DNA from: Patescibacteria group bacterium UBA3466
Lineage (GTDB): Bacteria; Patescibacteriota; Minisyncoccia; Phycocordibacterales; UBA918
Length of the DNA: 64,000 nt
Direction: 5' to 3'
Assembly (NCBI GenBank): GCA_002378195.1
Contig: DFRJ01000002.1
Coordinates: 129,054 to 193,053, forward strand
Shown: positions 24,865 through 45,355 of the stretch, piece after piece
Layout: each line of letters starts with the position of its first letter
Numbering within the stretch: position 1 is the first letter of the stretch
Position numbers and translations under genes: made by a program
Notes under the pieces: generated by a model
The model's input: the letters and a program-made list of their open reading frames with translations, nothing else
The model's database searches: none
Told to the model about the DNA's origin: nothing

Positions 24865-24869
24865 CTATC

Positions 24870-25418: not shown

Positions 25419-25445
25419 TCAAAATTTATTCTTAAGTAATTAAAC

Positions 25446-25979: not shown

Positions 25980-25987
25980 ACTGAACT

Positions 25988-26611: not shown

Positions 26612-26620
26612 AGAAATAAT

Positions 26621-27280: not shown

Positions 27281-28535
27281 TATGAAATATATTTTATTTA
27301 GCTTACTGGTGTTTTCTTTGCTCGGCGGCTTGTTTGCAACCATACACAACTCAGAAGTAACCACTGTTACCTATAAACGTGATACTCCTAGTGCCACGAC
27401 AGAAGTGGTCACCCAAATAGCTGAACCAGAAGAAGCAGTTGAGGAACCAGTTGTATCGACCTCAAACCAAGTAAAAGAAATTGAAATTCAGCCTGGCGAT
27501 ACCTTCTCTACCATTATGGAAGAAGTAGCTGTTACCGCTGAAGATCAGAGTTCAATTCTCGCTGCTGTTCAAGATGTCTATGACTTCACCAAACTGCAAG
27601 CTGGCAAACTGATACACGTTGTCTTTGCACAGGACGCATTAGCATCGGTTGACTATGACTTGAATGACGACAAGAAGATTGTAATTGAAAATGTTGACGG
27701 TGAATTTGTAGCCAAAGAAGAAGCGATTGAGTATGACGTTACTGAAGTGGTACGCAGTGCCACAATTGAGTCTTCGTTATTCTACGACGGTGCAAGTGCT
27801 GGCTTGTCCGACAAGACTCTGGTTGAACTAGCCGAAATCTTTCAGTGGGACATAGACTTCAGTACTGACATCCAGATTGACGACTCGTTTGTTGTTTTGT
27901 ATGAAGAGCGAAAAACAAAAGATGGTGAAGAAGCCAGTGCCGGAAAAATTCTCGCTGCTCAGTTCACTAATCAAGGCGAGACGTACGAGGCGTACTACTT
28001 TGAAACATCAACTAGTACAGGTGGTTACTACGCTGCCAACGGTGAGAGTGTTGAACGCCAGTTCTTAAGCTCACCAATTGGAGTTGGGTACGTGAGTTCA
28101 GGTTTCAGTTATAGCCGACTGAATCCAATTACCAAACGTGTGACACCACACCGAGCTATCGACTACGCTGCTCCACACGGTACGCCAATCGTGGCTATTG
28201 CGGACGGCGAAGTTACTTTGTCAGGAAACAGAGGTCCACTTGGTATTGCCATTGATATCGAACACGGACAGTACATGAGCCAGTACGCTCACATGTCTAG
28301 TATCGACTCTGCGGTGAAGAAAAATCCTGAAGTGAAACAAGGACAGGTTATCGGATACGTTGGTTCAACTGGTCAATCAACTGGTCCTCACTTGCACTAC
28401 ACACTCTTTAAAGATGGAAACCCTATCAATCCAGCTGACATTGATATGCCAGTCGGTGAATTACTCACCGAAACAGAGCTTGATGACTTTCAGGTCGTTG
28501 CTGACGGCTATAAGATTCAATTGGGTGTAAATTAA
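27273..28535 (+). CDS. M23-family peptidoglycan endopeptidase
   Basis: C-terminal LytM domain motifs (HRAIDYAAPHGTPI; GSTGQSTGPHLHYTLF); N-terminal anchor. Confidence 0.75.
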   Translation: MNSMKYILFSLLVFSLLGGLFATIHNSEVTTVTYKRDTPSATTEVVTQIAEPEEAVEEPVVSTSNQVKEIEIQPGDTFSTIMEEVAVTAEDQSSILAAVQDVYDFTKLQAGKLIHVVFAQDALASVDYDLNDDKKIVIENVDGEFVAKEEAIEYDVTEVVRSATIESSLFYDGASAGLSDKTLVELAEIFQWDIDFSTDIQIDDSFVVLYEERKTKDGEEASAGKILAAQFTNQGETYEAYYFETSTSTGGYYAANGESVERQFLSSPIGVGYVSSGFSYSRLNPITKRVTPHRAIDYAAPHGTPIVAIADGEVTLSGNRGPLGIAIDIEHGQYMSQYAHMSSIDSAVKKNPEVKQGQVIGYVGSTGQSTGPHLHYTLFKDGNPINPADIDMPVGELLTETELDDFQVVADGYKIQLGVN

Positions 28536-28549
28536 TCTAATTTATTAGT

Positions 28550-30505: not shown

Positions 30506-30507
30506 AT

Positions 30508-30966
30508 ATGGATGAAGTAATAGTATTCTTAGCTAGTAAATTACATGTAGCTATTGTTGTTATTGCAATCATTACATTCCTGCTCTCCACCAAGAAGCAA
30601 AGAATGGCACTTGCTCTAACTGCAATGACGGCATTACCACTATCGTATCTACTAGGAAAAATAGCGAGTTTCTTCTATTACACCGAGCGACCGTTTTCTG
30701 AACTTGGTATCGCTTCACTTGTACCACACATTGCTGATAATGGTTTTCCTTCAGAACATACACTCTATGCGATGGTGATTGCGGCTGCAGTATTCTCGAT
30801 ACGCAAAAACTGGGGTCTACTGCTCATTGCCCTCGCTATCCTAGTTGGAGTAGGTCGTGTTCTTGCTTATGTACATAATCCAATTGATATTGTCGGCTCT
30901 GTATTCATAGCAAGCATTGCTGTCTTTAGTTCAGTTTATGTATTGCACCGAATCAATGTGCAATAA
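30508..30966 (+). CDS. PAP2-superfamily membrane phosphatase
   Basis: KxxxxxxRP-like (YYTERPF), PSEH and GRxxxxxHxxxD (GRVLAYVHNPID) motifs. Confidence 0.6.
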   Translation: MDEVIVFLASKLHVAIVVIAIITFLLSTKKQRMALALTAMTALPLSYLLGKIASFFYYTERPFSELGIASLVPHIADNGFPSEHTLYAMVIAAAVFSIRKNWGLLLIALAILVGVGRVLAYVHNPIDIVGSVFIASIAVFSSVYVLHRINVQ

Positions 30967-30993
30967 GAAATTGAGTTATCTAACGATTGCACA

Positions 30994-31012
30994 TGAGACC
31001 CCCTGGGGGTAT
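30994..31012. promoter_or_regulatory. Putative CsoR operator (G/C-tract inverted repeat)
   Basis: aGACCCCCtGGGGGTaT immediately upstream of the csoR start. Confidence 0.45.
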
Positions 31013-31021
31013 ACTGACAAT

Positions 31022-31291
31022 GTGAAAAAAGAATTAAAATCAAAAATCGAACGACAACTAAAAGTGATTGAGGGTCAAGTGCGAGGTTTGCAAAAAATGG
31101 TGACAGAAGACAAATACTGCGTTGATATAATTACGCAAACTTCGGCTATTCGAAACTCACTTAGTTCAGTTGAAGAAAAAATGCTTGAAAGTCATCTTGA
31201 TACTTGCGTGGCAACGCAGATGAAGGGAAAAAATAAAAATAAAGCCATCGCTGAAGTTTTGTCAGTCTATAAACTGGCAAAACGAAAATAA
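31022..31291 (+). CDS. csoR: CsoR/RcnR-family copper-sensing repressor (ORF track 30917..31291; GTG 31022 preferred)
   Basis: Cys...His-x3-Cys ligand pattern (YCVDIITQ...ESHLDTC); ~90-aa all-helical. The longer ORF would overlap the PAP2 gene. Confidence 0.7.
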   Translation: MKKELKSKIERQLKVIEGQVRGLQKMVTEDKYCVDIITQTSAIRNSLSSVEEKMLESHLDTCVATQMKGKNKNKAIAEVLSVYKLAKRK

Positions 31292-31292
31292 T

Positions 31293-32459
31293 ATGAAACA
31301 GACCCACTCATACCTGATGTTAGGAGTTTGTCTAACTCTACTACTCGTAGTATTTGCTGGTATATACACAAGTGCAACTCAAGAGAAGTCGTATGACGCA
31401 AATACTGTTAGTGGAGATGTGCTTACGTCCCGTGCAACGTTAATTGTGCAGCCACAATCTGATGCTGACACAGTGCTGGTCGATCGTGTAACTCTTACTG
31501 AGGGAGGGTTCCTTGCTGTGAGGGCTATTGACGACAATCGCCTCGGACAAATTGTTGAAATAAGTGAATACCTCGCACCTGGTACGCATAATAACTTATC
31601 GATCCCGCTTGGCGAATTCTATGATGGTGGCGAAGAGCTTATTGTCATGATGTATGAAGACGCTGGTAATGACAAAATCTTTAACGATCTGGATCAGCCA
31701 TATGAGGAGGACGGAATTCCCATTGCAGTCTATGTAGCAACTGGCGAAAAAGTCCCGGAATTTATAGTAACCAACACTAGTACTCCTGAGGGGATTTCGC
31801 TCATGGATATGGGAACCATGGAATTTATCAGCTACACCGACTCAGGCTTCGAGCCAAAAGACGTGACGATATCCCTTGGCACGATGGTTCATTTTGTGAA
31901 CGAAAGTTCAGTTGATATGTGGGTGGCTTCAGATGATCATCCGGCTCACACTGACTTGCCAACCTTTGATCAGTTTAAGGGTAGCGGTCCTGGTGAACAG
32001 TACGTCTACATATTTGACCAGGTTGGTGAATGGAAGTATCACGATCATCTTAATCCACCGGCGGTGGGAACCATACTTGTTACTGAGGCTGCTGATACTG
32101 AAGTAAAGCTTCCGACTTCCAAAAATGATTCAGGATATTACAGTATTGACAGCGATAATTTTTCTCAGTTGGTTGACGACCCAGAGGTGACAACCGTAAA
32201 TGTACACATTCCTTACGGCGGAGAAATCGCCGGCACCGAGGCCTTTGTTCCATACAATGATACCCAGGCGCTGCTGGCAGCTTTGCCGAGTGATACAACT
32301 GCACCAGTAGCTCTCTACTGTCGAAGTGGCAGCATGAGTGCAATTGCAGCTAAAGCTGTAGTCGCTGCTGGATATACCAGTGTATATGATTTAACTGGTG
32401 GTATGAATGCGTACCGGGTTAGTGGTCGTGACGTACTGGTAAAAGAACAAAATAACTAA
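31293..32459 (+). CDS. Secreted/anchored protein with cupredoxin-like middle domain and C-terminal rhodanese domain
   Basis: N-terminal TM; EWKYHDHLNPPAVGTILV resembles a cupredoxin C-terminal strand but without Cys/Met; rhodanese loop YCRSGSMS with catalytic Cys. Confidence 0.55.
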   Translation: MKQTHSYLMLGVCLTLLLVVFAGIYTSATQEKSYDANTVSGDVLTSRATLIVQPQSDADTVLVDRVTLTEGGFLAVRAIDDNRLGQIVEISEYLAPGTHNNLSIPLGEFYDGGEELIVMMYEDAGNDKIFNDLDQPYEEDGIPIAVYVATGEKVPEFIVTNTSTPEGISLMDMGTMEFISYTDSGFEPKDVTISLGTMVHFVNESSVDMWVASDDHPAHTDLPTFDQFKGSGPGEQYVYIFDQVGEWKYHDHLNPPAVGTILVTEAADTEVKLPTSKNDSGYYSIDSDNFSQLVDDPEVTTVNVHIPYGGEIAGTEAFVPYNDTQALLAALPSDTTAPVALYCRSGSMSAIAAKAVVAAGYTSVYDLTGGMNAYRVSGRDVLVKEQNN

Positions 32460-32465
32460 TCACGT

Positions 32466-33179
32466 ATGTTACTAGGAATTAAAAGTACCAAAGTAGCTTT
32501 ACTTCGCCATCTAGGCGTGGCAATAGTCGGTGGGCTACTTATTTATCTTGTCTGGTCACTCAATAGCACCTGGAGTCCTGATATGAGACTCTGGAAGGCT
32601 TTTGGTGGCGCTTCGTTCTTCTTGCTGTGGTTTGCAATATTCATTGGACCCGCAGCTAAGTTACTACCCGCCCTTAATGTGGTGCTTTCGTATCGACGTG
32701 AAGCTGGAGTCTGGTTTTTCTTAATTGCGCTCGTTCATGGCTATCTCATCCTCGATGGATGGGTGCGGTGGAGCGTTTGGGAGTTTTTCGGCTATCAATA
32801 CATTGCAGAGATTGATACCTACTTGCGAGTAGAGTCTGGTTTTGGCCTCGCCAACCTCTTGGGCTTTGTTGCCTTAACGTTTGCTCTAGCACTCGCAGCT
32901 ACTTCATTCGATAAAGCGGTAAATTGGCTTGGTATACAGTCATGGAAATGGCTGCACGGATTTGCGTACGTTGTTTTCTATCTCGGCGCAATACATGTCG
33001 TCTATTTTGCCTTTATCCATTACACTCCATCGCTTACAAGAGCTATGCAGGGTCTGCAAACCAACTATCCTGACAATCCACTCAAGTATTACTACCTGTT
33101 TATGCTCCTCAGTGTACTAGTGGTTCAGATACTTGCTTTCATCCAGACGGTCCGTCGTAATCGCAATACAAGTTGGTAA
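32466..33179 (+). CDS. Ferric-reductase-like transmembrane domain protein (haem-binding 6-TM)
   Basis: Six TM helices with paired conserved His on alternate helices (LVHGY..., IHVVYFAFIHY). Confidence 0.5.
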   Translation: MLLGIKSTKVALLRHLGVAIVGGLLIYLVWSLNSTWSPDMRLWKAFGGASFFLLWFAIFIGPAAKLLPALNVVLSYRREAGVWFFLIALVHGYLILDGWVRWSVWEFFGYQYIAEIDTYLRVESGFGLANLLGFVALTFALALAATSFDKAVNWLGIQSWKWLHGFAYVVFYLGAIHVVYFAFIHYTPSLTRAMQGLQTNYPDNPLKYYYLFMLLSVLVVQILAFIQTVRRNRNTSW

Positions 33180-33864
33180 CTGTATGGTATTTGAAACGCA
33201 CATCACGGCTCATAAAGAAGTAGCTAAGGGTACTCACGAAGTGACACTCGGGCGTCCAACGTCATTTGTCTTCAAGGCGGGACAGTATACCCAAGTGGCT
33301 GTCCCAAAATTGACACACTCTGATCCGAAAGGCCGATCGAGACAATTCTCAATCGCCTCTTCGCCATACGACATGGACGAGATCAAGGTTGTCTTTAGAA
33401 ACTCAGGTAGTGGCTTCAAGGAGACACTCCTACACACGTCAATTGGTGCTTCGGTGCAGATTGAACAAGCGGCGGGCAGTTTTCTCTTACCTCAAAAGGT
33501 TACCCGACCGCAGGTGTTTGTAGCTGGTGGTGTCGGGATTGCTCCGTTAATGAGTTACTTGCACCAAAGGATAGATGATGTGTGGGAACAACCCGTCACA
33601 TTACTCTACGGTAATCAAAACCCTGAGAGCGCTGCATATTTAGGAGAATTACAACAGATGAGCAAGCAACACCGTCAATTTTCCCTAGACAACATCTACA
33701 AGCGACCCACTCCCGGACTCTTTGCAAAGTTGGCTGAAAAGCATCAGGTTGCAGTGTGGTGGGTAGTTGGCCCACCTGGCATGGTGTCTGTGACGGTTAA
33801 CGGTTTACATCTGGGAGGAATTTCGGCAGACAAGATTATGACTGAATCGTTTGATGGATATTAG
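33133..33864 (+). CDS. FNR-like FAD/NAD(P)-binding oxidoreductase domain protein (probable start ATG ~33184, MVFETHI...)
   Basis: RQFSIASSP (RxYS FAD motif); GGVGIAPLMS NAD(P)-binding glycine motif. Immediately follows the ferric-reductase TM gene, so a split NOX/FRE-type reductase. Confidence 0.65.
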   Translation: MLSSRRSVVIAIQVGNCMVFETHITAHKEVAKGTHEVTLGRPTSFVFKAGQYTQVAVPKLTHSDPKGRSRQFSIASSPYDMDEIKVVFRNSGSGFKETLLHTSIGASVQIEQAAGSFLLPQKVTRPQVFVAGGVGIAPLMSYLHQRIDDVWEQPVTLLYGNQNPESAAYLGELQQMSKQHRQFSLDNIYKRPTPGLFAKLAEKHQVAVWWVVGPPGMVSVTVNGLHLGGISADKIMTESFDGY

Positions 33865-33905
33865 CAGAAAGTATTAAATGTAAATTAATAACGTAATAAA
33901 TCTGT

Positions 33906-34373
33906 ATGGAATCATTATTTCCCCTAGGTATAGAACAATATCTCGTTGGTGGACTACTGGTTGGTTTAGGTATTTCTTTTGTCTATATTATGACCGGCTT
34001 AGTCTCAGGTGTTTCGACTGCCTTTACATCAACGTGGTCCTTTTTTTCACGAGATACAACATCTTTTTTCAGACGAGAAAAATTTCTCTCTTCACGAACC
34101 TGGCGTCTTTCTTTGGTCACTGGCTTGATGCTTGGTGGTCTTGTATATCTTGTTTTTATCAACGGAGGTGAATCGACAGTTGCTTCACTTTCAATGACCA
34201 GACTGTTCTTTGGAGGGCTGTTGGTGGGGATAGGTACCCGCATGGCGGCAGGTTGTCCGTCTGGTCACGGTATATGTGGCAACGCTATGCTTGAGAAGAC
34301 CTCGTTCATCTCTACTGTCACATTTTTATCAGTTGGTATTGTTGTTGCTTTGTTAACGCAATCAATTTTCTAA
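33906..34373 (+). CDS. YeeE/YedE (DUF395) sulfur-compound transporter half
   Basis: 4-TM half-transporter with conserved Cys motif (GCPSGHGICG). Confidence 0.6.
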   Translation: MESLFPLGIEQYLVGGLLVGLGISFVYIMTGLVSGVSTAFTSTWSFFSRDTTSFFRREKFLSSRTWRLSLVTGLMLGGLVYLVFINGGESTVASLSMTRLFFGGLLVGIGTRMAAGCPSGHGICGNAMLEKTSFISTVTFLSVGIVVALLTQSIF

Positions 34374-34378
34374 AACTT

Positions 34379-34816
34379 ATGCATATGAATACTAAAAAAC
34401 ACATTGCAATCATCCTCGGAGGAACACTGTTTGGTTTTGGTTTGGCTTATTCAGGAGCAGCTGTGCCAGAAATCGTATTGTCCTTTTTGAGGCTTGAAGA
34501 CTTTGGCTTAGTGTTGGTAATTGGTGGCGCGCTTCTAGTGACACTGATTACATTCCAGCTGATACCAAAATTATTGTCGAAACCTTTGCTGAACGGAACA
34601 TTTGCCACTTCGTCTCGACTGTCAGTATCAAAATGGAATGTTATTGGTGCGGCAGTCTTTGGTGCCGGCTGGGGTATCTCAGGTCTTTGTCCAGGGACCT
34701 CATTCGCAGCCATTGGTATGGGTAACTGGCCGATACTTATTGGTATTATCGGTATGTTTATCGGAGCGTATGTATACGGAACACTTCGCAATAAAGGATT
34801 GACTGGAATTGAATAA
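34379..34816 (+). CDS. YeeE/YedE (DUF395) sulfur-compound transporter half
   Basis: Second 4-TM half with GLCPGTSF motif; adjacent to the first half. Confidence 0.6.
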   Translation: MHMNTKKHIAIILGGTLFGFGLAYSGAAVPEIVLSFLRLEDFGLVLVIGGALLVTLITFQLIPKLLSKPLLNGTFATSSRLSVSKWNVIGAAVFGAGWGISGLCPGTSFAAIGMGNWPILIGIIGMFIGAYVYGTLRNKGLTGIE

Positions 34817-36824
34817 CATGGAACATAAACATACAGACAATCATTGTCATAGTCATGGCAGCCCGGGTATGGGACACGGGTCAGCAGGTACATTTCTAAA
34901 GCGGTTTTGGATCGTCACGTTTCTTTTGATTCCGCTTGTCTTTGCTAATGAGATGGTCATGAATGCACTTGGTCTTGATGCATATACTCTTAGCAAATGG
35001 ATAGGTTTTGGTATCGCCACTATTATTTTCGGTTTCGCACTCATTTTCTTTGAGCACGCACTACATGAAATAAAGGCCCGAGCTTATGGCATGATGACTT
35101 TGGTTTCTATTGCGGTTGCAGCTGGATATTTGTTTTCAGTGGCAGCGACTTTTTTACCGTCACTTGAAGCTGATTTTTATTTGGAAATATCAACCTTGAT
35201 TTGGGTGCTTCTATTTGGTCACTACTTAGAAGCAAAATCTGGTGCCGCAGCCGGTGACTCGTTGGCCGAAGTGGCTAAGCTTTTGCCGAAGCAAGCTCAT
35301 AAGTTAATCAATGGTGTAGAAACTGATGTCGACATCAGTGATTTAGCTGATGGGGATTTGGTTCTTGTTAAACCTGGTGAGAAAATACCAGCTGACGGGA
35401 TGATCATAGAAGGTTCAGCCAACGTTGATGAGGCACTGATCAGCGGTGAGTCAACTCCAGTACAGAAAAAAGCTAAAGATGAGGTGGTGGCAGGGTCAAT
35501 TTGTCTTGACGGTTCACTTACTATCTCACTTACAAGAGTTGGTGAACATTCAACTATTGGTCAAATTCAAAATCTCATTGCTACTGCACAGCAAACCAAA
35601 CCTAAGTCGCAACGACTGGCTGATAAAGCAGCGGGTATTCTTACGTTTGTAGCTGGTATTACTGCACTACTCACACTGCTTATTTGGACATTTGTGATTG
35701 GTCAACCATTTGTATTCGGGGCAACACTGGCAATCACAGTGCTGGTGATTGCGTGTCCACACGCACTAGGATTAGCTATTCCAACGGTCACTACCATCAC
35801 TACTTCGTTGGCGGTGAAAAATGGATTCTTTATTAAGAACCTTGCTAAGCTTGAAGTTATTAAAAAAGCTGACTACGTAGTTTTTGATAAAACCGGCACA
35901 TTAACTACAGGAGTATTTGGGGTTACTGATTTAGTGGCTGTGGGAGATGTTGCGGAAGATGAGGTGTTACGAATCGCTGCTTCACTTGAACAACATTCTT
36001 CTCACATTATTGGTGAATCAATTGTATCTCACGCTAAGGAACAGTCAGTTACAATGTCTGATATTTCAGCCTTTAAGAATGTTGCTGGTAAAGGCATTGT
36101 TGCTGAGATTGATGGTAAGAAATATGTGGCTGGTAACCGAGCCTTGATTGAATTCTTGGATATTTCGTTCACTAAAGCTGAATCTCCATATAATGAATTG
36201 ATATCGAACGGCAAAACTACAATCTTTGTTGCTGATGAATCAACCGTGATTGGTCTAGTGGCTCTGTCTGACGCTATCAAGCCTGAGTCTTATGAAGCAG
36301 TAAAACGTTTGCATGAGCTTGATGTGAAGGTGGCTATGTTGACTGGTGACAATACGCAGGTGGCACAAAGTGTGGCAAAAGAACTTAATATCGACACGTT
36401 TTTTGCTGAGGTTTTGCCCGAAGACAAGTACGCTCATATTAAGGAATTACAGGAATCAGGATCAGTAATCTTGATGGTTGGTGATGGAGTCAACGATGCG
36501 CCTGCCCTAACGCAGGCAGATGCTGGGATTGCTATTGGAGCAGGAACTGATGTGGCGGTTGAGGCGGGAGATGTTGTCTTAACTCGAAACAATCCCGAGG
36601 ATATTGTTCGACTTATTACGCTTTCACGAAAAGTGTATATAAAAATGATACAAAACCTTGTGTGGGCACTTGGGTATAACGTGATTGCTATCCCAGCCGC
36701 TGCCGGTGTGTTTGCCAGCCTCGGTTTCTTTTTACGGCCTGAGATTGGAGCATTTGTAATGAGTCTCTCAACGGTGATTGTGGTCGCTAATGCGATGTTG
36801 CTGAAGCGTATAGATTTAACGTAA
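34809..36824 (+). CDS. copB: CopB-type (P1B-3) copper-exporting ATPase with His-rich N-terminus
   Basis: N-terminal HKHTDNHCHSHGSPGMGHG; CPH in TM6 (IACPHALGLAIP); DKTGTLT; GDGVNDAP. Confidence 0.85.
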   Translation: MNNMEHKHTDNHCHSHGSPGMGHGSAGTFLKRFWIVTFLLIPLVFANEMVMNALGLDAYTLSKWIGFGIATIIFGFALIFFEHALHEIKARAYGMMTLVSIAVAAGYLFSVAATFLPSLEADFYLEISTLIWVLLFGHYLEAKSGAAAGDSLAEVAKLLPKQAHKLINGVETDVDISDLADGDLVLVKPGEKIPADGMIIEGSANVDEALISGESTPVQKKAKDEVVAGSICLDGSLTISLTRVGEHSTIGQIQNLIATAQQTKPKSQRLADKAAGILTFVAGITALLTLLIWTFVIGQPFVFGATLAITVLVIACPHALGLAIPTVTTITTSLAVKNGFFIKNLAKLEVIKKADYVVFDKTGTLTTGVFGVTDLVAVGDVAEDEVLRIAASLEQHSSHIIGESIVSHAKEQSVTMSDISAFKNVAGKGIVAEIDGKKYVAGNRALIEFLDISFTKAESPYNELISNGKTTIFVADESTVIGLVALSDAIKPESYEAVKRLHELDVKVAMLTGDNTQVAQSVAKELNIDTFFAEVLPEDKYAHIKELQESGSVILMVGDGVNDAPALTQADAGIAIGAGTDVAVEAGDVVLTRNNPEDIVRLITLSRKVYIKMIQNLVWALGYNVIAIPAAAGVFASLGFFLRPEIGAFVMSLSTVIVVANAMLLKRIDLT

Positions 36825-36851
36825 GTCAAATAGTATAATCGATACATCCAT

Positions 36852-37247
36852 ATGGGACAAAAATTGGGTACATCAATAGTGACGCTACTATTTCTTGGAG
36901 CTATGTTCGGGGGTCTTTTTCACATGGCGGGAATGGAAATGAGTGGTGGGATGACTGACTGTCCATACATGTCTCAACAAGAAACAATTTGTGCTATGAG
37001 CGTGTCTGAGCACTTGGGTGCCTGGCAGTCCACTTTTACATCTATCGCACCAACTCTGTTTACAATCCTAGGGCTGCTGTTTGTAGCTGTCGCAGTAGCT
37101 CAAATTGCACCGAATTTATTACGGAAAGTTAGACTAGCGTTAATCCGTTTATCGAGCACACAGTCAAGCAGTCGTGATTTCAATTTTGTAGCCAGACCGC
37201 TACAAGAACTATTCTCTAGCGGCATCCTACACCCCAAACTCTTCTAG
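36852..37247 (+). CDS. Small Met/Cys-rich membrane-associated protein (possible Cu-binding)
   Basis: HMAGMEMSGGMTDCPYMSQQETICAMS Met-rich cluster; hydrophobic segments. Confidence 0.4.
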   Translation: MGQKLGTSIVTLLFLGAMFGGLFHMAGMEMSGGMTDCPYMSQQETICAMSVSEHLGAWQSTFTSIAPTLFTILGLLFVAVAVAQIAPNLLRKVRLALIRLSSTQSSSRDFNFVARPLQELFSSGILHPKLF

Positions 37248-37295
37248 CTAATAAAAACAGCAGAGCATTCTGCATTTATTAGCTTAGAAATATGT

Positions 37296-37955
37296 ATGAA
37301 TAAAAAATTAATCCTTGGAGCAATACTGTTTGTTCCAACAGTATCGTTCGCGCACGATAGCGAACATGTAACGACAGCGTGGTATCAAAATCCATTAGTG
37401 CTCACGTTAACTGTTTTAACAGTTATTGCTCTTGGCACACTCTGCTACGGGTGGGTATCGAAAAGAAAAAACTTACAGATAGTACCTGCAGTGGCTCTCG
37501 TAGTAATCGCTGTCACCAGTTTCGCTATGTTTAGCCAACCAGTTGATACTTATGAACCAGAATTAGCAATGGCTGATTTTGGCACTGGCCAAACAGTCAC
37601 GTTGTATAAAAGTCCAAATTGTGGCTGCTGTAGTGGTCACGCTAAAGCACTCGAAGAAGCAGGCTTTGCTGTTAACATAGTTGAAACAGACGAGCTTGAT
37701 CAAATTAAAAGTGAACAAAATATTCCACCTACAGGCGCAAGTTGTCACACGTCAGTCATTGGTGACTATGTAGTTGAAGGTCATGTTCCCTTGGAGGCAA
37801 TTGAGAAATTACTGACTGAAAAACCCGATGTGGCCGGTATTGGACTACCAGGAATGCCTATCGGAACGCCTGGAATGCCAGGCAGGAAAACAGCACCCTA
37901 CGAGGTATATCAGCTATCGGAAGACGGGCAAATGTCACCGTACATGACAATCTAA
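37296..37955 (+). CDS. DUF411-family periplasmic copper-binding protein
   Basis: Signal peptide; CxCC motif (SPNCGCCSGH); C-terminal Met/Pro segment (GLPGMPIGTPGMPG). Confidence 0.7.
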   Translation: MNKKLILGAILFVPTVSFAHDSEHVTTAWYQNPLVLTLTVLTVIALGTLCYGWVSKRKNLQIVPAVALVVIAVTSFAMFSQPVDTYEPELAMADFGTGQTVTLYKSPNCGCCSGHAKALEEAGFAVNIVETDELDQIKSEQNIPPTGASCHTSVIGDYVVEGHVPLEAIEKLLTEKPDVAGIGLPGMPIGTPGMPGRKTAPYEVYQLSEDGQMSPYMTI

Positions 37956-37974
37956 TAACAAAAGTAAATAAAAT

Positions 37975-39690
37975 ATGAAATATATAAGCATTGCAGTACT
38001 CGCTCTCGTTCTGATTGGAGGAGGAGCGTGGTACTACACAAATAACATGCATTCCATGATGAATATGGACGGCATGATGATGGGACAAGAAATCCCTGAA
38101 AAAGAAAACTTATCAATCCTACATGACTCAGATGTTCCAGAGGTAAAACCAACAGAAGTCGTTGAGCTCAAGGATGGCGACACTTTTGACCTCACTGCTT
38201 CAATCGTGAAGCAGAAAGTTGGCAATCGAGAAGTAAAACGACTGGCATATAACGGTCAAATTCCTGGACCAATTCTTAAAGTGGAAAAGGGTTCAGAGGT
38301 GACCGTGAACTTCACGAATAACATCGATATGGAAACGTCGCTCCACTCACACGGTTTGCGAGGAGACTGGCAGATGGATGGTGCAGTGCCGATCACTCCA
38401 CCAGTAGAAATTGGCGAGACGTTTAGCTATCAACTCGAATTTCCTGACACTGGGGTCTTCTGGTATCACCCGCATGTTCGTGAGGACTACCAGCAAGACA
38501 TGGGCCTCTATGGCAACATGATTGTTGAAGAAGATGGATATTGGAACGAAGTAGACCAAGAGGAGTATCTCATCATTGATGATCTTCTTGAAGACGGTGA
38601 ATATAATCGTGCAATGGTCACTAATACACTGATGGGTCGTTTTGGTGACACTTTGCTCATTAATGATACAGAAGACTACGAACTCACGGTCAATCAAGGA
38701 GAAATTACTCGTGCGTTTATCACTAATGTAGCGAATACTAGAACCTTTGAGCTTGAATTTGAAGGAGCTGAGATGAAGCTAGTTGGTGGTGACTTAGGGC
38801 GTATTGAGCAGGAGGAAATGATTGAACATCAAATCATCGCTCCAGCGGAACGATACATCATTGAACTCTACTATGATACTCCAGGCACATACGCCATTGA
38901 CCACCGTGGTGAATCAATCGGAACAGTGACTGTGCAGCCGTCAGGTACAAACCAACAAGCTGAATTCTCGCAATTGCGGTCAAATGCTGGTGATTATGCA
39001 GAACTTCGAGCAAACACGTCAGCGTTGCTAGCAAAAGCACCAGACAAGAATCTTCGACTTGATATCGAAATGAAAGGTATGGGTGGTATGCAAATGATGC
39101 AGCAGATGATGGGAGGAGATTCTGACGGTGAAACCGTAAACCTTATGGGGATGGAAATGAACCGTGAGCAAGCTATTGAGCATTGTCAGATGATGCCAGG
39201 TATGGCTGGCTGCGAACCGTTCCTAAACGCTGAAGAAGAGTCAGATAGCATGGGAGGGATGGTGATGGGAGGAGATGAAGAACATAGTGAAGATGGAATT
39301 GAATGGGAAGATGATATGGCTATGATGAACAATATGAGTAACGACGAGATGATGGAATGGGTCATTGAAGACACTGATACTGGTGCTAAGAATGACGAGA
39401 TCGACTGGTCGTTTGAGACTGGTGATTTGGTGAAGGTGCGTGTATACAATGATGAAAATGGCATGCACCCAATGCAACACCCACTCCACTTCCACGGACA
39501 ACGTTTTGTTGTGTTGGCTACTGACGATGAACTTAACGAAAACATGCAGTGGAAAGATACTGTGTTGATTCCTAAGGGACAGACAGTAGATCTACTGGTC
39601 GACATGAGCAACCCAGGTAAATGGATGGCGCATTGTCACATTGCTGAACACCTGCACTCAGGGATGATGTTTAACTTTGAAGTGAAATAG
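37975..39690 (+). CDS. Multicopper oxidase (CueO/CopA-like) with Met-rich insertion
   Basis: Four Cu-site motifs (HSHG, WYHPH, HPLHFHG, HCHIAEHLHSGMM); long Met-rich insert (MGGMQMMQQMMGG...MMPGMAGC...MAMMNNMSNDEMMEW). Confidence 0.85.
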   Translation: MKYISIAVLALVLIGGGAWYYTNNMHSMMNMDGMMMGQEIPEKENLSILHDSDVPEVKPTEVVELKDGDTFDLTASIVKQKVGNREVKRLAYNGQIPGPILKVEKGSEVTVNFTNNIDMETSLHSHGLRGDWQMDGAVPITPPVEIGETFSYQLEFPDTGVFWYHPHVREDYQQDMGLYGNMIVEEDGYWNEVDQEEYLIIDDLLEDGEYNRAMVTNTLMGRFGDTLLINDTEDYELTVNQGEITRAFITNVANTRTFELEFEGAEMKLVGGDLGRIEQEEMIEHQIIAPAERYIIELYYDTPGTYAIDHRGESIGTVTVQPSGTNQQAEFSQLRSNAGDYAELRANTSALLAKAPDKNLRLDIEMKGMGGMQMMQQMMGGDSDGETVNLMGMEMNREQAIEHCQMMPGMAGCEPFLNAEEESDSMGGMVMGGDEEHSEDGIEWEDDMAMMNNMSNDEMMEWVIEDTDTGAKNDEIDWSFETGDLVKVRVYNDENGMHPMQHPLHFHGQRFVVLATDDELNENMQWKDTVLIPKGQTVDLLVDMSNPGKWMAHCHIAEHLHSGMMFNFEVK

Positions 39691-39707
39691 TCATTCACTT
39701 CTCATAC

Positions 39708-39740
39708 AAAAACAGCCTCAAATGAGGCTGTTTTTGTATG
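39708..39740. terminator. Bidirectional hairpin terminator
   Basis: AAAAACAGCCTCA-aat-GAGGCTGTTTTTG between the MCO gene and the convergent 2TM gene. Confidence 0.65.
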
Positions 39741-39805
39741 CTTCTCGTGCTAGCACGAATTGGTGACCCACATTAGTTTAAATTGGAACCAAATAAGTCA
39801 ATCTA

Positions 39806-40726
39806 TTAGGTCTTTAGTTTGAATTTGTTAGTCATCTGGTACTTGTATAGTTTTTCAACGAAGTTCTTTTTTTCTTTCTTGTAGAAAGTTTCTTCTTTTT
39901 CAAAAAGTTTATTAATTCTTTCTTGTAGAGCAAGTGATATTATCTCAAGCATAAAAAGCGTCAGAAAAATAAGCAGGATAAGTATTGGGTTTGAAGCTGA
40001 GAAGTCTCCAAATGGCCAATTTTGCCAAGAAATAATCCCGCCTATAAAGCTAATCAACAGTACTGAGAACAATAGGTTCTTTGAAATATAAAAATAATTA
40101 AAGAATGGCTCAATATCTTTCTGCTTCACCAGTTCTTCTTTAGTCCCTTGTTGAAAATGATAAATATCGATCGAAAGCTGTGCTCTCGATTCATATTTTT
40201 TGTTAGCTAACCAAAAAACAAACTTCAAAATAAGTTCATTTAAGGTGTTAAGTTTTCTTTTCCAAAACATTCTGTCTGAAAGGTGGTTGCTTTCTAAGAC
40301 CTCCACAAAGTCATTTATAGATATTTCCTTTCCTGTTTTTAAAACTTTAACCTTTTTGTCTGCAGTAAATTCAAATTCGCGATCTCTTTCAACTTCTCCG
40401 GATGAATAATAATTCGTCACTCTTTTTTTGTACTTGTCTCCATCAGTTATAGAATATGATATTTCAGGCTCTTCACCCTTGGGTTCAGTCATGTTTACTG
40501 AGTACGATATTTTTTCACCTTCAACTGAAACCTTGATGAACATTTTCATGTTGTCTTCAAAGTATTTTGTTTCTTCTGGGTAGTCTCTAATTATTGAAAA
40601 ACCGACACCGTCAATAAAACCGACAGTTTTCTCGTCTCTTTCTTTTTTAGTATATAGTTTTAATAATTCACTAGAATCCATTAGTTTGATTATGTAGACT
40701 TTACTCTTTATGTTATATCTTTTCAA
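39806..40726 (-). CDS. Hypothetical protein: soluble N-terminal domain plus C-terminal 2-TM hairpin
   Basis: AT-rich, Lys/Asn-rich; two hydrophobic helices near the C-terminus; co-directional with and 117 nt downstream of the NERD gene. Confidence 0.5.
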   Translation of the reverse strand: MKRYNIKSKVYIIKLMDSSELLKLYTKKERDEKTVGFIDGVGFSIIRDYPEETKYFEDNMKMFIKVSVEGEKISYSVNMTEPKGEEPEISYSITDGDKYKKRVTNYYSSGEVERDREFEFTADKKVKVLKTGKEISINDFVEVLESNHLSDRMFWKRKLNTLNELILKFVFWLANKKYESRAQLSIDIYHFQQGTKEELVKQKDIEPFFNYFYISKNLLFSVLLISFIGGIISWQNWPFGDFSASNPILILLIFLTLFMLEIISLALQERINKLFEKEETFYKKEKKNFVEKLYKYQMTNKFKLKT

Positions 40727-40842
40727 GCATGAAATATTCAGAAGAGATCATTGCAGAGTATAAGACTCTAATGAAACGTGACTATGACCACAAAGTCACA
40801 GACGACGAAGCTCAGTTGGAACTAAACAGTTTGGTAAAAGTT

Positions 40843-41673
40843 CTATTTGGTTGTGCTGGCAGTGACTCCAGTTTGTGTACTGAGAGGTATAGGAGTTAGT
40901 CCTTCTCCAGAATGTATAACTTCCAGATTTTCTGCGTGTTGCTCAGCGGTAACTTGTGTCTGGCAAAGAACGGAAAGTTTTCCTATGGCCATCAGTAACT
41001 CACCTTCACTTACAATTTCTTTTTTCTTTGATTCTATGTAATCGACTAAATCATCACCATGCATTACAGATGGTGGCATTTCAGTTTTAAACTCACTTTC
41101 TTCAGAAAAAACTATCACACTGTAGAAGCTTTTCTTCAAGAAAGGCATATGTTCTTTAAGGGCTGAGACATGAGCAAAGTTCTGAAGTATAGGGTTTTGG
41201 AAATGTGATTTCTTTCCCCAAAGTGTCTGAGTCCATTTCTTTTGGTTCTTGTGTCCAAATATCCATCCACTGTAATCTTTATTTTCAATTACAAAGATTC
41301 CGTACTTAGATACAATTATGTGGTCAATTTGTGTAGTTACAGTAACCGAAGAAGGAATGGTTATGTTGTTGAATATGTAATACTCTTTTGGATCCAAGTG
41401 TTCAGCTAAGTGCTTTACTAGTAGATACTCATAGCTTGTTAAATCATCTATGTAGCATCTGTGCCCATGCATCTCATTATTTGAAATACCCGTATCTGTT
41501 GACCACTTAGCAGTATGATTTGATCGAATACTTTGAGCTTCGGAGAGACGTCTTTTTATGTCTAAGCTTTCAGTTTCTGAATATGGGTTTCTCTTTTTTC
41601 GATTCTTAATCTTCTTGTATATCCATACAAAAAAGATTATCCAAAGAACACTAATAAAAAAGTCCTGATCCAT
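40843..41673 (-). CDS. NERD (nuclease-related domain) protein with N-terminal TM
   Basis: N-terminal TM; NERD-like core (HIIVSKYGIFVIENKDYSGWIFG). Confidence 0.65.
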   Translation of the reverse strand: MDQDFFISVLWIIFFVWIYKKIKNRKKRNPYSETESLDIKRRLSEAQSIRSNHTAKWSTDTGISNNEMHGHRCYIDDLTSYEYLLVKHLAEHLDPKEYYIFNNITIPSSVTVTTQIDHIIVSKYGIFVIENKDYSGWIFGHKNQKKWTQTLWGKKSHFQNPILQNFAHVSALKEHMPFLKKSFYSVIVFSEESEFKTEMPPSVMHGDDLVDYIESKKKEIVSEGELLMAIGKLSVLCQTQVTAEQHAENLEVIHSGEGLTPIPLSTQTGVTASTTK

Positions 41674-41715
41674 TAAGTCTAGTATATCAACGTAATTTTT
41701 CAGTAGTTGTTACAT

Positions 41716-41807
41716 ATACACCATCTTTAGCCGTGAAATCCCTCCTTTCGCTACGAAGCTTCGCGCTGCGAGCTTGCGAGCAGTGTGAAGGCGAAATGAA
41801 CGGCTAA
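41716..41807. repeat. Structured GC-rich intergenic element: 15-bp inverted repeat enclosing CGAAGCTTCG palindrome and GCGAGC direct repeats
   Basis: CACCATCTTTAGCCG ... CGGCTAAAGATGGTG arms flank ...TTTCGCTACGAAGCTTCGCGCTGCGAGCTTGCGAGCAG. Confidence 0.5.
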
Positions 41808-41809
41808 AG

Positions 41810-42571
41810 ATGGTGCATTTATTCACTTTTTATAGTACTTTGCTTCTAATGAACACAGTTGAAGAAGAAATGATTAAAGTTTTGGAATTGGTAGCTTTTA
41901 AATATGCTAAATGGGAAAAGCATAAGCTTGAGAACAATTCTGACCTACCAGAAATATCTCTGTATAAAGATGATTTTGAGGAAATGGGAATTACATATCA
42001 AGCAGCTTTGTTGCCTTTAAAGCAGCTTGAAGGTAAGGGAATGCTGATGATTGATCATATCTCTGATCCGCTTACCTTTGATCCAGAAAAGGATCCATTC
42101 GATGAAGAAGATATTGTTAATGGAAAATTGAGGGTCATGGTCTACAACTTAATTGTTGGAGGTTCATCTGTGTATCGCTACTTAGATGGTCTTAAGAATG
42201 GTTTTGAAGAGGACGAGTACACAAATAACTCACATGAAGCTAGCTTTGAGGAAGATGAGAGTATTTTAAATGTTGCTGGATATCAGATTAAAATCGCTTT
42301 GCAGGACAAGATAACTAACGACCATAAGATTTTAAACTACATCTTAAATCATGATGATGAAGAGGTTTACTATAAAGACATTGCGCAAAATGAATTTGGA
42401 GAGATAGCATATGGTGACAAAGATACTTCATGGAAGCGATACCATACATCTTGTAAATCAATCAACGATAAGGTTAGAGAGGTAACAAAAGGGAAGATCA
42501 ATGACTTTCTTATTTTTAATACAGGCAATAAAGGTAGAGTTAGAATTAATGGACTATACAGACATTCATAA
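41810..42571 (+). CDS. Hypothetical acidic protein
   Basis: AT-rich ORF flanked on both sides by GCGAGC-type repeats; no motif. Confidence 0.45.
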   Translation: MVHLFTFYSTLLLMNTVEEEMIKVLELVAFKYAKWEKHKLENNSDLPEISLYKDDFEEMGITYQAALLPLKQLEGKGMLMIDHISDPLTFDPEKDPFDEEDIVNGKLRVMVYNLIVGGSSVYRYLDGLKNGFEEDEYTNNSHEASFEEDESILNVAGYQIKIALQDKITNDHKILNYILNHDDEEVYYKDIAQNEFGEIAYGDKDTSWKRYHTSCKSINDKVREVTKGKINDFLIFNTGNKGRVRINGLYRHS

Positions 42572-42663
42572 AAGTTTACAGAATTTTAGGTAACTTCCTA
42601 GAACATAAAAAGAGTAACGTAGCACCATCGAGAGATGTGTGTTTTTTCTTTCGATCAACAGCC

Positions 42664-42722
42664 TAGGTCATTGTGCGAGCTTTCGCTTCGAAGCCTAGCG
42701 TGCGAGCGAAGCTCGCACGTGT
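42664..42722. repeat. Iteron-like GC-rich repeats upstream of the Rep gene
   Basis: ...TGTGCGAGCTTTCGCTTCGAAGCCTAGCGTGCGAGCGAAGCTCGCACG: GCGAGC direct and inverted copies and a CGAAGC motif. ~80% similar to the repeat at 41741-41789. Confidence 0.5.
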
Positions 42723-42746
42723 AGGACTTGATTAAAGGCATAGATA

Positions 42747-43604
42747 ATGAGAATGACAGAATATACTAATACAAAAATAGTTGCCGCTGGTCAGATTGTA
42801 CGCGTGACAAGGTATCTTGATGAGCCTGTCGCTTACAATTTTAAACGTAAAAAGGAAATTCCAATCGAAGGAATGTCTACTCGTGCTGAAAGAAGACGGG
42901 TGGCAAAAGAGGTTTATTGGACTCCTGAACGTCTCGAGAAAGAGCGTGAGCTAAACAGGAAGAAAGCAATGATCTCTGCAGCATCCCGCTTAAGAGACTG
43001 GGTGAACGCTAATGCGTGGCAGTATCGAGATGTGAATGGCCGTTTGTATCTGCCGGTGTTTGTGACGCTGACTTTTCGTGAGGATGTCAGAGATATAGAA
43101 ACAGCCAATGAGATTTTTACTTTATTTATAAAAAGATTAAATTTTTTCGTTCTTAAAGATAAGAGAGCAGAACTCAAGTATGTGAATGTTATTGAGTTTC
43201 AAGATAAGACTCGTGATGGAGTGATTCACTACCACACTCTCTTTTTCAATCTTCCATTTGTATACAAGAAAAAGCTCGAGAAGATTTGGGATCAAGGGTT
43301 TGTGAAAATTAAAAAGGTAGACAAGGTTAAGAATCTTGCTGGGTATATGACCAAGTACATGGTCAAAGGTTTTGATGATCCTCGTCTAGATGGCAAGAAA
43401 CGATATTTTCCTAGTAGAAACCTCATTAAGCCAACTGTGATTAGAGATGAGCTCACTGCAAAAGCTGTTCTGTTTCAATTGCCCGAAAAGAATCTTCATA
43501 AGGTTCGTGAGTTTGAAAGTGTTCATGTTGGCAAGGTAAAGGCTATGGACTTCATTCTCGATAAGGGTGAAACACTCCAAGACGTCATTGATTTTGTTAT
43601 ATGA
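42747..43604 (+). CDS. HUH-endonuclease rolling-circle replication initiator / relaxase-like protein
   Basis: HUH motif (VIHYHTLFF) followed by a Tyr-containing motif (AGYMTKYMVKG); upstream iteron-like repeats. Confidence 0.55.
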   Translation: MRMTEYTNTKIVAAGQIVRVTRYLDEPVAYNFKRKKEIPIEGMSTRAERRRVAKEVYWTPERLEKERELNRKKAMISAASRLRDWVNANAWQYRDVNGRLYLPVFVTLTFREDVRDIETANEIFTLFIKRLNFFVLKDKRAELKYVNVIEFQDKTRDGVIHYHTLFFNLPFVYKKKLEKIWDQGFVKIKKVDKVKNLAGYMTKYMVKGFDDPRLDGKKRYFPSRNLIKPTVIRDELTAKAVLFQLPEKNLHKVREFESVHVGKVKAMDFILDKGETLQDVIDFVI

Positions 43605-43779
43605 TCACCTTGTCTCGAATTAGAGAAATTGAACCCTCGTTGAGAGATGCTTCTGATGAAGAAGTTGCTCAAATTCGTGACCAAATCTATGGTTTAGCCC
43701 AGCTTGCTTATGATTGTTACAAAAAAGAGAATGATTCCAAATTCCCCATGGGGTCATTGCAAGTAGACGATATGAAGTA
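43600..43779 (+). CDS. Possible small helical protein (59 aa) between Rep and the recombinase
   Basis: ATG overlaps the Rep stop (ATATGA); ends TAG 3 nt before the recombinase ATG. Absent from the ORF track (short). Placement suggests a possible RDF/Xis-like protein. Confidence 0.25.
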
Positions 43780-43782
43780 GCT

Positions 43783-45321
43783 ATGTATGATAATCCTATG
43801 AAAGCAGGTAATGCAGTGATCTATTGTCGTGTATCGTCCCTAGAACAGGTTGAAGGAACCAGTCTTGAGTCTCAGGAACGTATGTGTCGAGACTACGCTA
43901 AAAGAGAAGGAATGGCTGTCTCAGAGGTGTTTATAGATCGTGGTGAGTCTGCTAAAACAGCAGATCGTACAGAATTTTTAAATGCCATATCGTACTGCTC
44001 CAAAAAGAAGAATGATGTCAGTCACTTCGTCGTATACAAGTTAGATCGCTTTGCCCGTAACCAAGAAGACCACATAGGAGTTCGTGCCAAGCTGAAACAA
44101 TATGGTGTCCAACTGCGCTCAGTCACTGAGCCGATTGATGATTCTCCAATGGGTAAGATGATGGAAGGTATCCTCTCTACTTTTGCAGAGTTCGACAACA
44201 ACGTTCGTACTGAAAGAAGCACAAACGGAATGAAAGAACGTCTTAAGAAAGGAATTTGGGTCTGGTCAGCACCACTTGGATACAAGCGTCTAGAGAAAGG
44301 TGGAAATTTAGTTCCTGATGAAGCAAACGCACACTACGTACGCATGGTTTTTGATGAGTATTCCAAAGGTGTTCATACATACAAAACACTAGCCACACTT
44401 TTATTTGAAAAAGGGTTTCGTTCCAAAGGTGGTAAAAAGATTCCGTTTCAAACTTACGAGAAGATGCTTAAGAATCCACTCTACTGCGGAATCATTAAGG
44501 TTGATACGTGGGGAGTTGAGATGAGAGGAGATTTTGAACCAATCATTTCAGAAGACCTCTTCAGGAAGTGTCAGGAGTCAGGTCGCACACACAAATCATT
44601 TTCAAAACTGACCAAGAACCCCGATTTTCCATTGAGGAAGATTGTTGTTTGTGAATGGTGTGGTGCTCCACTAACCGGTAGTTATTCAACTGGTCGTCAT
44701 GGAAAGAAGTATGGTTACTATCATCACCACAAGCAAGGTTGCCCTTGTGCTAGCTCGATCAGGAAGGATGATTTGGAGAAAGATTTTGTTTCTTTACTGG
44801 AAGAGATCAATCCGACTGTGCAGTACGCAAATCTGTTTAAAGAGGCATTCATGGAGATCTACAATGAAGAAAATAAGAAAAGCGAAGAGACTAGCGCTGC
44901 GGCTCAGAAAGAGCTTGAGAAACTGAAAGATAAGAAAGCTCATATCTATAACAACTTTGAAGATGGTGTGTACACCAAGACAGAGTTTTTAGAGCGTAAG
45001 AGGGAAGTAGACAAGCTTATCATTGCTGGAGAGTCAGTTATTGCAACTGAGGATACGTCAGACGTCGATATCGAGAAAGCGCTCGACTACTGCCTGAGCT
45101 TTGTTACTGACACACCAAACAAATGGAGTGAATTGGCAAAATACCCTGAAGAACGCTTGCGGTTCCAAAATTTTATTTTTGACGGCAATATTCCGTATAC
45201 ACAAAACAACGGTTTTGGAACCGCTGTTTTGTCGCCTATTTATTCGATATATCAGCATTGGCAGGCTGATAATTCTTCTTTGGTGATCCCACGGGGAATC
45301 GAACCCCGATTTCCAGGATGA
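43783..45321 (+). CDS. Large serine recombinase (integrase), intact
   Basis: N-terminal resolvase catalytic domain with nucleophile Ser (AVIYCRVSSLEQ) and KLDRFARN; recombinase domain; zinc ribbon (CEWCGAPL...GCPC); coiled coil. The 3' end overlaps the tRNA-Glu 3' end. Confidence 0.85.
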   Translation: MYDNPMKAGNAVIYCRVSSLEQVEGTSLESQERMCRDYAKREGMAVSEVFIDRGESAKTADRTEFLNAISYCSKKKNDVSHFVVYKLDRFARNQEDHIGVRAKLKQYGVQLRSVTEPIDDSPMGKMMEGILSTFAEFDNNVRTERSTNGMKERLKKGIWVWSAPLGYKRLEKGGNLVPDEANAHYVRMVFDEYSKGVHTYKTLATLLFEKGFRSKGGKKIPFQTYEKMLKNPLYCGIIKVDTWGVEMRGDFEPIISEDLFRKCQESGRTHKSFSKLTKNPDFPLRKIVVCEWCGAPLTGSYSTGRHGKKYGYYHHHKQGCPCASSIRKDDLEKDFVSLLEEINPTVQYANLFKEAFMEIYNEENKKSEETSAAAQKELEKLKDKKAHIYNNFEDGVYTKTEFLERKREVDKLIIAGESVIATEDTSDVDIEKALDYCLSFVTDTPNKWSELAKYPEERLRFQNFIFDGNIPYTQNNGFGTAVLSPIYSIYQHWQADNSSLVIPRGIEPRFPG

Positions 45322-45355
45322 GAACCTGGCGTCCTAGCCGTTAGACGATGGGACC
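45281..45355 (-). tRNA. tRNA-Glu (anticodon CUC), CCA encoded
   Basis: Minus-strand sequence GGTCCCATCGTCTAACGGCTAGGACGCCAGGTTCTCATCCTGGAAATCGGGGTTCGATTCCCCGTGGGATCACCA folds by hand into a cloverleaf: 7-bp acceptor, D arm, anticodon loop UUCUCAU, 5-bp T stem CGGGG/CCCCG with TTCGATT loop. Confidence 0.85.

Follow-up and report, generated by a model that had tools for sequence, protein, structure and literature searches.

Neighbouring NERD-domain and two-transmembrane genes on a small tRNA-Glu element of Patescibacteria: probably independent, plausibly defensive cargo

Described systems and the two cargo genes

Stand-alone, membrane-anchored proteins with a NERD domain (PF08378) were reportedly described by Grynberg and Godzik in 2004, and we know of no member of this membrane-anchored stand-alone subfamily whose function has been tested. 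PrrC, in the EcoprrI Type I locus, is an accessory suicide gene within a restriction-modification (R-M) locus, and membrane-disrupting abortive-infection effectors include RexB as well as the transmembrane (TM) effectors of CBASS, Thoeris and retron systems. Here we analyse two neighbouring genes, one encoding a NERD protein and the other a protein with two TM segments (the 2-TM protein), in a 64,000-nucleotide (nt) stretch of contig DFRJ01000002.1 of Patescibacteria group bacterium UBA3466, hereafter called the window. Both genes are cargo of a 5.5-kb integrative element at a tRNA-Glu gene, covering window positions ~39772-45292, and we conclude, with a probability of roughly 0.55, that they are independently distributed single-gene accessory modules, plausibly defensive, which became neighbours by chance in the variable cargo slot of this element.

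40843-41673, minus strand: NERD gene, encoding a membrane-anchored stand-alone NERD (PD-(D/E)xK-type nuclease-related) protein of 276 amino acids (aa)
39806-40681, minus strand: 2-TM gene, encoding a protein of 291 aa with an N-terminal beta-rich domain, a helical linker, a TM hairpin and a basic C-terminal tail

A first-pass annotation of this DNA had described two co-directional low-GC genes, the first for a TM-anchored NERD protein and the second for a protein with a soluble N-terminal domain and a C-terminal 2-TM hairpin, and the open reading frames (ORFs), the profile match, the hydrophobic segments and the guanine-plus-cytosine (GC) content all agree with this description. The two ORFs are co-directional on the minus strand and extend over the span 39806-41673 that it had given, and the GC content at 40-42 kb is 0.346-0.348, as compared to 0.41-0.45 immediately beside the element and ~0.43-0.48 in the outer flanks of the window. 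Since full-length homologues exist for each (42-48% identity for the 2-TM protein and 54-74% for the NERD protein), both ORFs are real genes and not chance reading frames. The 2-TM ORF was at first listed as 39806-40726 from a TTG start; however, the ATG at 40681 (MDSSELL...) is where the alignment with all of the 26 homologues begins, and we therefore take it as the start of the gene. This leaves an intergenic gap of 161 nt (116 nt from the TTG). A consensus scan of the locus for promoter-like and terminator-like sites was no richer than shuffled sequence. A 56-aa ORF at 40729-40899 on the plus strand, antisense to the 3' end of the NERD gene, fills the gap, and some metagenome annotations include it as a gene; it was rejected as probably spurious, having neither homologues nor family matches.

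The NERD ORF matched PF08378 with 101.9 bits (gathering cut-off 22.1; E 3.8e-29) at residues 85-190. Residues 4-22 form a single N-terminal hydrophobic helix that is directly followed by the stretch KKIKNRKKR, for which reason the NERD domain is predicted to lie in the cytoplasm, held at the inner side of the membrane. Each of E82, D117, E130 and K132 is kept in at least 98% of the 120 best homologues when these are aligned, so that the E-D-ExK catalytic set of the PD-(D/E)xK type is, as judged from sequence, intact. An N-terminal hydrophobic segment is found in 95 of 120 close homologues as well, which makes the protein a typical representative of a large membrane-anchored stand-alone subfamily; the NERD homologues number more than 2400. 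It shares with the stand-alone proteins the single domain, the E...D...ExK pattern, the N-terminal TM helix and the length, whereas many relatives also carry a C-terminal topoisomerase-type zinc ribbon (PF01396), which is absent here. At two loci with NERD homologues (loci are referred to by L numbers), L071 5787-7070 and L078 3314-4747, the NERD homologue is followed by a zinc-ribbon and RDD membrane protein, an order that could reflect shared synteny rather than a functional association.

Towards validated defence proteins, the NERD protein gave matches at the domain level, to the PADLOC models PglW (8.9e-06) and MkoA (2.7e-04), spanning ~65-120 residues of models with 1400-1600 positions, and to NCBIfam MAD6 (2.4e-11). 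Its NCBIfam scores were 42.9 against a cut-off of 460 for MAD6 and 20.7 against 990 for PglW. It thus belongs to PF08378 and not to PglW (BREX type 2/Pgl), MkoA (Mokosh), MAD6 (MADS) or ZwsA (Zowangsin), which are multidomain proteins of 600-1600 aa (kinase, helicase, S4 and others), in contrast to the 276 aa found here, and none of the partner genes of these systems is present at the locus. Defence by the NERD nuclease ZwsA requires the tetrad E535/D567/E580/K582 (preprint, bioRxiv 10.64898/2026.04.06.716636), and this tetrad matches E82/D117/E130/K132 of the NERD protein. Shedu SduA is, like the NERD protein, a single-gene PD-(D/E)xK nuclease module, and the closest relative of our element (L082, replication initiator 88% identical) carries a 423-aa SduA homologue in the NERD position (1501-2772, minus strand; Pfam SduA_C; PADLOC 4.9e-29). 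SduA is soluble, whereas the NERD protein is membrane-anchored, and no sequence match was obtained between the NERD protein and the SduA models of PADLOC.

Co-occurrence and the neighbourhoods of the 2-TM family

The first-pass annotation had proposed that the NERD and 2-TM genes form a defence or abortive-infection pair, with co-occurrence across genomes as a check. We assembled 59 loci around 2-TM homologues (424,850 bases; ~48 distinct genes besides that of the window) from genome and metagenome collections and by exact look-ups, and ran a hidden Markov model (HMM), built from 120 NERD homologues, at E<=1 on the raw six-frame translations; no NERD gene was found in any of these loci. Conversely, a 2-TM HMM found no 2-TM gene in 10 loci that hold close NERD homologues from five sets (identity 54-74%), which instead were single genes in varied, mostly housekeeping-looking surroundings. 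The two genes were jointly found only in copies of this element from marine metagenomes and, because these copies are 100% identical to it, they are not independent evidence. A conserved pair was consequently rejected, the family HMMs having shown no co-occurrence in either direction in the fetched loci. As far as these sequences tell, neither gene needs the other, since each family is found without the other everywhere else, and we advise against carrying the proposed pair of a NERD protein and a TM effector forward as a candidate two-gene system.

The 2-TM protein belongs, on the sequence record, to a small uncharacterised family that is almost confined to Patescibacteria. It has 27 relatives in a collection of 5.8 billion proteins, and a profile search of 1.84 billion proteins yielded 95 representatives at 50% identity, all with the same architecture and none linking the family to a known one. 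Full-length representatives measure ~265-312 aa and the shorter ones cover only part of the profile; since none is longer, nothing points to a fusion with another domain. The genome collection, in which each of 185,579 species is represented by one genome, had matches in 21 contigs, and the hosts are almost all metagenome-assembled genomes of Patescibacteria, the Candidate Phyla Radiation (CPR), namely Paceibacterota, Parcubacteria, Ryan-, Yonath-, Yanofsky- and Zambryskiibacteria and records labelled Saccharibacteria; the family was absent from the viral contigs of IMG/VR. The hydrophobic segments of the 2-TM protein lie at residues 198-221 and 224-254, two such segments are present in all 27 family members, and the tail is lysine-rich and basic (12 K/R versus 5 D/E). 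No match was found in Pfam, PHROGs or NCBIfam. The AlphaFold2 (AF2) model has a per-residue confidence (pLDDT) above 90 for residues 1-60 and 101-130, with moderate values for the helices, and Foldseek returned nothing at E<=0.001 for it (best E 0.34 in the PDB and 0.22 in BFVD); a profile search of PDB sequences likewise gave nothing meaningful. Atg10 (E 0.34) and Glr1262 (E 0.008 over 60 residues) were considered as relatives of the N-terminal domain and treated as chance matches. We found no paper on the family or on an R-M-linked membrane protein in Patescibacteria, although such an absence is not proof.

No conserved partner family of the 2-TM gene was identified, yet its placement is non-random. 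An upstream gene is co-directional in 34 of the 39 loci with an upstream ORF, at a gap of 50 nt or less in 22 and often of -4 to +3 nt. Among the three genes on the upstream side, R-M components prevail (N6_N4_Mtase 9, N6_Mtase 6, Eco57I 6, D12 3 and Methylase_S 3, with further Pfam matches to EcoRI_methylase 2, MvaI_BcnI 2, GmrSD 2, ResIII 2 and Type_ISP_C 1), and domains of DNA methyltransferases are present in ~21 of the 92 proteins encoded upstream versus ~2 of the 67 encoded downstream, the downstream count being inferred from clustering. The gene immediately upstream is distributed as follows.

L039, L042, L051: Type IIG gene
L038: Type ISP gene
L018: Type I S subunit gene
L020, L045: GmrSD gene
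L065: Dam methylase gene
L037: DUF3644 gene, itself preceded by a Type III Mod/Res pair
Several others: unknown gene behind a methyltransferase gene
L010-13, L016, L025, L030: gene for a small helix-turn-helix (HTH) regulator
L029, L031, L032: housekeeping gene

In R-M operons of Types I, II, IIG, III, ISP and IV, the 2-TM gene typically comes last, translationally coupled to the gene before it or at a short distance from it. Behind the Type IIG, ISP, I S and GmrSD genes it often overlaps the preceding stop codon or lies 0-30 nt from it, while it follows Type III Res operons more loosely (L037, L053 and L063). By our own tally, R-M genes lie within about three genes upstream, or just downstream, in ~24 of the ~33 distinct loci with enough flank, a raw count, and the types represented are I, II, IIG, III, ISP and IV, so that the family recurs beside known defence genes in unrelated genomes. 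The genes downstream are mostly housekeeping genes. HTH-2TM operons are found in L010-13, L025 and L030, and serine recombinases lie near the 2-TM gene in L010, L021, L030 and L062.

Two further associations were observed. The most recurrent specific neighbour of the 2-TM gene is a soluble 209-aa family without Pfam match (cluster c3), which stands directly beside it, on either side, in seven distinct loci (L019, L021, L023, L041, L042, L043 and L058; e.g., L021 5370-5999). In L010-L013 (e.g., L010 6902-9979) an operon encodes an Xre-type HTH protein, the 2-TM protein, a 1025-aa protein without Pfam match and a protein of ~150 aa, and the operon of L010 adjoins a serine recombinase gene.

Possible roles of the two genes

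A defence-type role for the two independent modules is plausible, because the corresponding slot of the sister element holds Shedu SduA and because the 2-TM family is strongly linked to R-M operons. Both genes would then be accessory cargo directed against phages or other mobile genetic elements, to the benefit of the host of the element. The NERD protein may be a membrane-proximal nuclease acting on incoming nucleic acid, its activity and target both being predicted, and the 2-TM protein may be a self-contained sensor-effector following abortive-infection logic, in which the cytoplasmic N-terminal domain would sense infection or restriction failure and the hairpin would then perturb the membrane. 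The HTH-2TM operons and the varied neighbours support such an autonomy of the 2-TM protein. By analogy, the 2-TM protein would at most resemble, in its action, the membrane abortive-infection effectors or a suicide gene lodged in an R-M locus, as PrrC is. With the former it shares a cytoplasmic domain combined with a short TM hairpin and a location on mobile elements or in defence islands; however, it has neither sequence nor fold similarity to them and no conserved signalling partner, and membrane disruption by the 2-TM protein is a prediction. PrrC, like the 2-TM homologues, is an extra gene inserted in or appended to an R-M operon, but it is a soluble ABC-ATPase and anticodon nuclease of one Type I system, whereas the 2-TM protein sits in the membrane, has neither a nuclease nor an ATPase domain, and is found with six or more R-M types.

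Several observations weigh against a defensive role of independent modules. The defence function is assigned by association, the NERD protein matches defence models at the domain level only, and its close homologues reside in housekeeping-looking neighbourhoods, not in defence islands. The 2-TM protein matched no family of PADLOC-DB 2.0 at E<=0.1, the R-M tally of ~24 in ~33 loci is a raw count and not an enrichment over a genome-wide background, and some 2-TM homologues follow DAO, DFP/aldolase or 3-demethylubiquinone methyltransferase-like genes. Furthermore, the adjacency and shared direction of the two genes at this locus may reflect co-transcription or a locus-specific interaction. Variable defence-type cargo on a small integrative element is a known kind of arrangement, and of the defence reading in the first-pass annotation the mobile, defence-like context stands while the two-gene unit, very probably not a real one, falls. 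Membrane-anchored stand-alone NERD proteins are very common, and their presence as mobile-element cargo beside defence genes may hint at their role. The only lead that we consider worth following is the association of the 2-TM family with R-M systems in Patescibacteria, and this family, with a confidently modelled N-terminal domain lacking a PDB or BFVD match and a position at the 3' end of many R-M operon types, is a reasonable candidate for testing by defence-island logic.

An obligate two-gene defence or abortive-infection system, in which the NERD protein would be the sensor or nuclease and the 2-TM protein the membrane effector, is very improbable. Although the genes are adjacent, co-directional, both low in GC and both cargo of a mobile element, and although the architecture recalls known systems that combine a nuclease with a TM effector, they do not co-occur in either direction outside identical copies of the element, each family is complete and widespread alone, and the gap of 161 nt at this locus compares to -34 to 50 nt for most 2-TM homologues. 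A looser dependency, with the 2-TM protein as a promiscuous accessory partner of whichever restriction-type nuclease is encoded upstream, either as a backup suicide effector following the logic of PrrC in EcoprrI or as a membrane tether, is possible if still unlikely; here the NERD gene would fill the restriction position. The tight coupling of the 2-TM gene as last gene behind Type IIG, ISP, I S and GmrSD genes, the Dam methylase in L065, the excess of methyltransferase domains upstream (~21/92) over downstream (~2/67) and the PD-(D/E)xK type of the upstream gene at this locus are all consistent with it. On the other hand, some loci have only an HTH or housekeeping gene upstream, NERD is never the partner elsewhere, and the tight spacing may just reflect compact CPR genomes and island structure. 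The upstream R-M types are, moreover, mechanistically unrelated, which makes a specific protein contact unlikely. Of a doubtful but more far-reaching kind is the suggestion that the 2-TM proteins are a new Patescibacteria-specific family of membrane effectors wired to any restriction type, a plug-in second line that would respond to restriction that has failed or been inhibited, or to the DNA products of restriction, by killing or arresting the cell through the membrane, and that would here be plugged in behind a NERD nuclease. If true, this would be an R-M-guard principle like that of PrrC, but type-agnostic and membrane-based, in a phylum in which CRISPR systems are uncommon.

Other readings dispense with phage defence. 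One or both genes could serve the maintenance or competition of the element itself, by post-segregational killing, exclusion of related elements or membrane-associated DNA handling; they are carried on a small element with its own replication initiator and integrase, and 2-TM homologues lie near serine recombinases in L010, L021, L030 and L062. We regard this as quite improbable: the genes stand outside the conserved backbone, the absence of both from sister elements makes a purely element-selfish role unlikely, and most 2-TM homologues are found in R-M operons with no replication initiator or recombinase nearby. Passive carriage, with the NERD protein in general membrane-associated nucleic-acid processing and the 2-TM protein in an unrelated membrane function, would fit the housekeeping-type genes around close NERD homologues and the lack of a recognisable domain in the 2-TM protein. 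It is nonetheless unlikely, if less so for the NERD protein, given that the 2-TM family is patchy, rare and R-M-linked, that a Shedu gene occupies the equivalent slot of a sister element, and that NERD domains are part of several validated defence proteins.

The host element, its slot and its ends

The first-pass annotation had placed both genes inside a mobile module, and the element backbone, the tRNA-Glu gene and the sister elements bear this out. The remaining features of the element and its borders are as follows.

41810-42571, plus strand: ORF253, divergent from the NERD gene, no family match, in the variable region
42747-43604, plus strand: Rep, replication initiator (REP_ORF2-G2P, rolling-circle type; Pfam PF23343 8.9e-21; PHROG matches to rolling-circle initiation), first backbone gene
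43601-43780, plus strand: 59-aa backbone ORF, kept at this place between the Rep and recombinase genes of sister elements (identity 61% in L082, 41% in L086)
43783-45321, plus strand: large serine recombinase (Resolvase, Recombinase and Zn_ribbon_recom domains), 3' end reading into tRNA-Glu
45281-45355, minus strand: tRNA-Glu(CTC), integration target on the attR side (ARAGORN; Rfam tRNA 60.4 bits)
39760-39789, plus strand: putative attL, TTGGTGACCCAC (displaced remnant of the tRNA 3' end), N9, AATTGGAAC
39703-39740, no strand assigned: hairpin, perfect 18-nt inverted repeat (I2, 100% complementary) between the multicopper oxidase gene and the element

With recombinase domains beside a tRNA gene, a conserved backbone and variable cargo, the element is a tRNA-targeting integrative element with a large serine recombinase. 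Elements whose Rep is 88%, 82% and 43% identical retain all three backbone genes, and in L085 and L086 the recombinase gene again finishes inside tRNA-Glu, with a conserved C-terminal peptide. The host genome is a marine one, and the named homologues of Rep, like the 2-TM family, suggest Patescibacteria as its group. DNA homology to the sister elements starts shortly before Rep, at 42699, and everything to the left of this position (ORF253, the NERD gene and the 2-TM gene) is variable among them; ORF253 was assigned to the variable region since it is not conserved in sister elements. The cargo slot is thus swappable: L082 has small unknown ORFs beside SduA, and L086 has unrelated unknown genes. 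The Shedu gene in the equivalent slot of L082 indicates that 5-kb Rep/serine-recombinase elements shuttle defence genes, and the family of such tRNA-Glu-integrating elements, with relatives in Parcubacteria/Patescibacteria genomes and a slot that swaps Shedu, NERD and unknown genes, can be viewed as a small natural 'defence shuttle'.

The left end of the element is probably at about 39772. The attL candidate directly follows the hairpin behind the multicopper oxidase gene, which is likely the original bidirectional terminator of the oxidase and tRNA-Glu genes, and it coincides with the fall in GC content toward 0.35. TTGGTGACCCAC corresponds to the tRNA 3' end with one base missing, and this 12-mer match by itself is at chance level. 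L086 has TTTGTGACCCAC-N9-AATTGGAAC at 5.1 kb from its tRNA-Glu gene, in the same arrangement as the window, GTGACCCAC-N9-AATTGGAAC being the motif common to both; because the motif and AATTGGAAC recur at the matching place, we accept the putative attL provisionally. No long att direct repeats and no empty site or circular form of the element were found, and the tRNA was the sole match in an Rfam scan of the element.

Some sequence features within the element were also observed. Between the NERD gene and ORF253, at 41716-41818, a 19-nt inverted repeat (95% complementary) surrounds a GC-rich core, and the GC-rich motif at 41745-41765, which has no Rfam match, resembles 42680-42700 upstream of Rep; the repeat and the motif may represent a replication origin or operator. 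At 45159-45232, GCGGTTCCAAAA occurs at the end of the recombinase gene, with an inverted copy in a hairpin ~50-80 nt from the 3' end of tRNA-Glu, and its TTGGAAC core is also present in the attL motif at 39781-39789; these repeats may be putative binding sites of the recombinase or an accessory factor.

Contigs L004 to L007 show other end positions. At 100% identity, L005 (ERZ840367) contains window positions 37291-45183, flanked left and right by unrelated sequence; L006 stops at 45184, and ends at 37264-37291 are seen in L004, L006 and L007. The junction of L005 at 45183 would cut the recombinase at codon 467 and conflicts with the tRNA-Glu boundary; this arrangement may stem from an assembly artefact or a rearrangement, or may represent a second genomic context. 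We rejected 37291-45183 as the canonical element, as L085 and L086 conserve a recombinase whose C-terminus runs into tRNA-Glu and the two junctions of L005 have no common crossover dinucleotide.

To the left of the element, a serine recombinase gene without the catalytic Resolvase domain (20653-21675, plus strand) marks the left edge of a ~19-kb metal-resistance block (21806-39690). This block encodes ZIP, CDF, DsbA-like and DUF3105 proteins, two P-type ATPases, a DUF411 protein and the multicopper oxidase, ends at the 5.5-kb element, and may be an older island accreted near tRNA-Glu.

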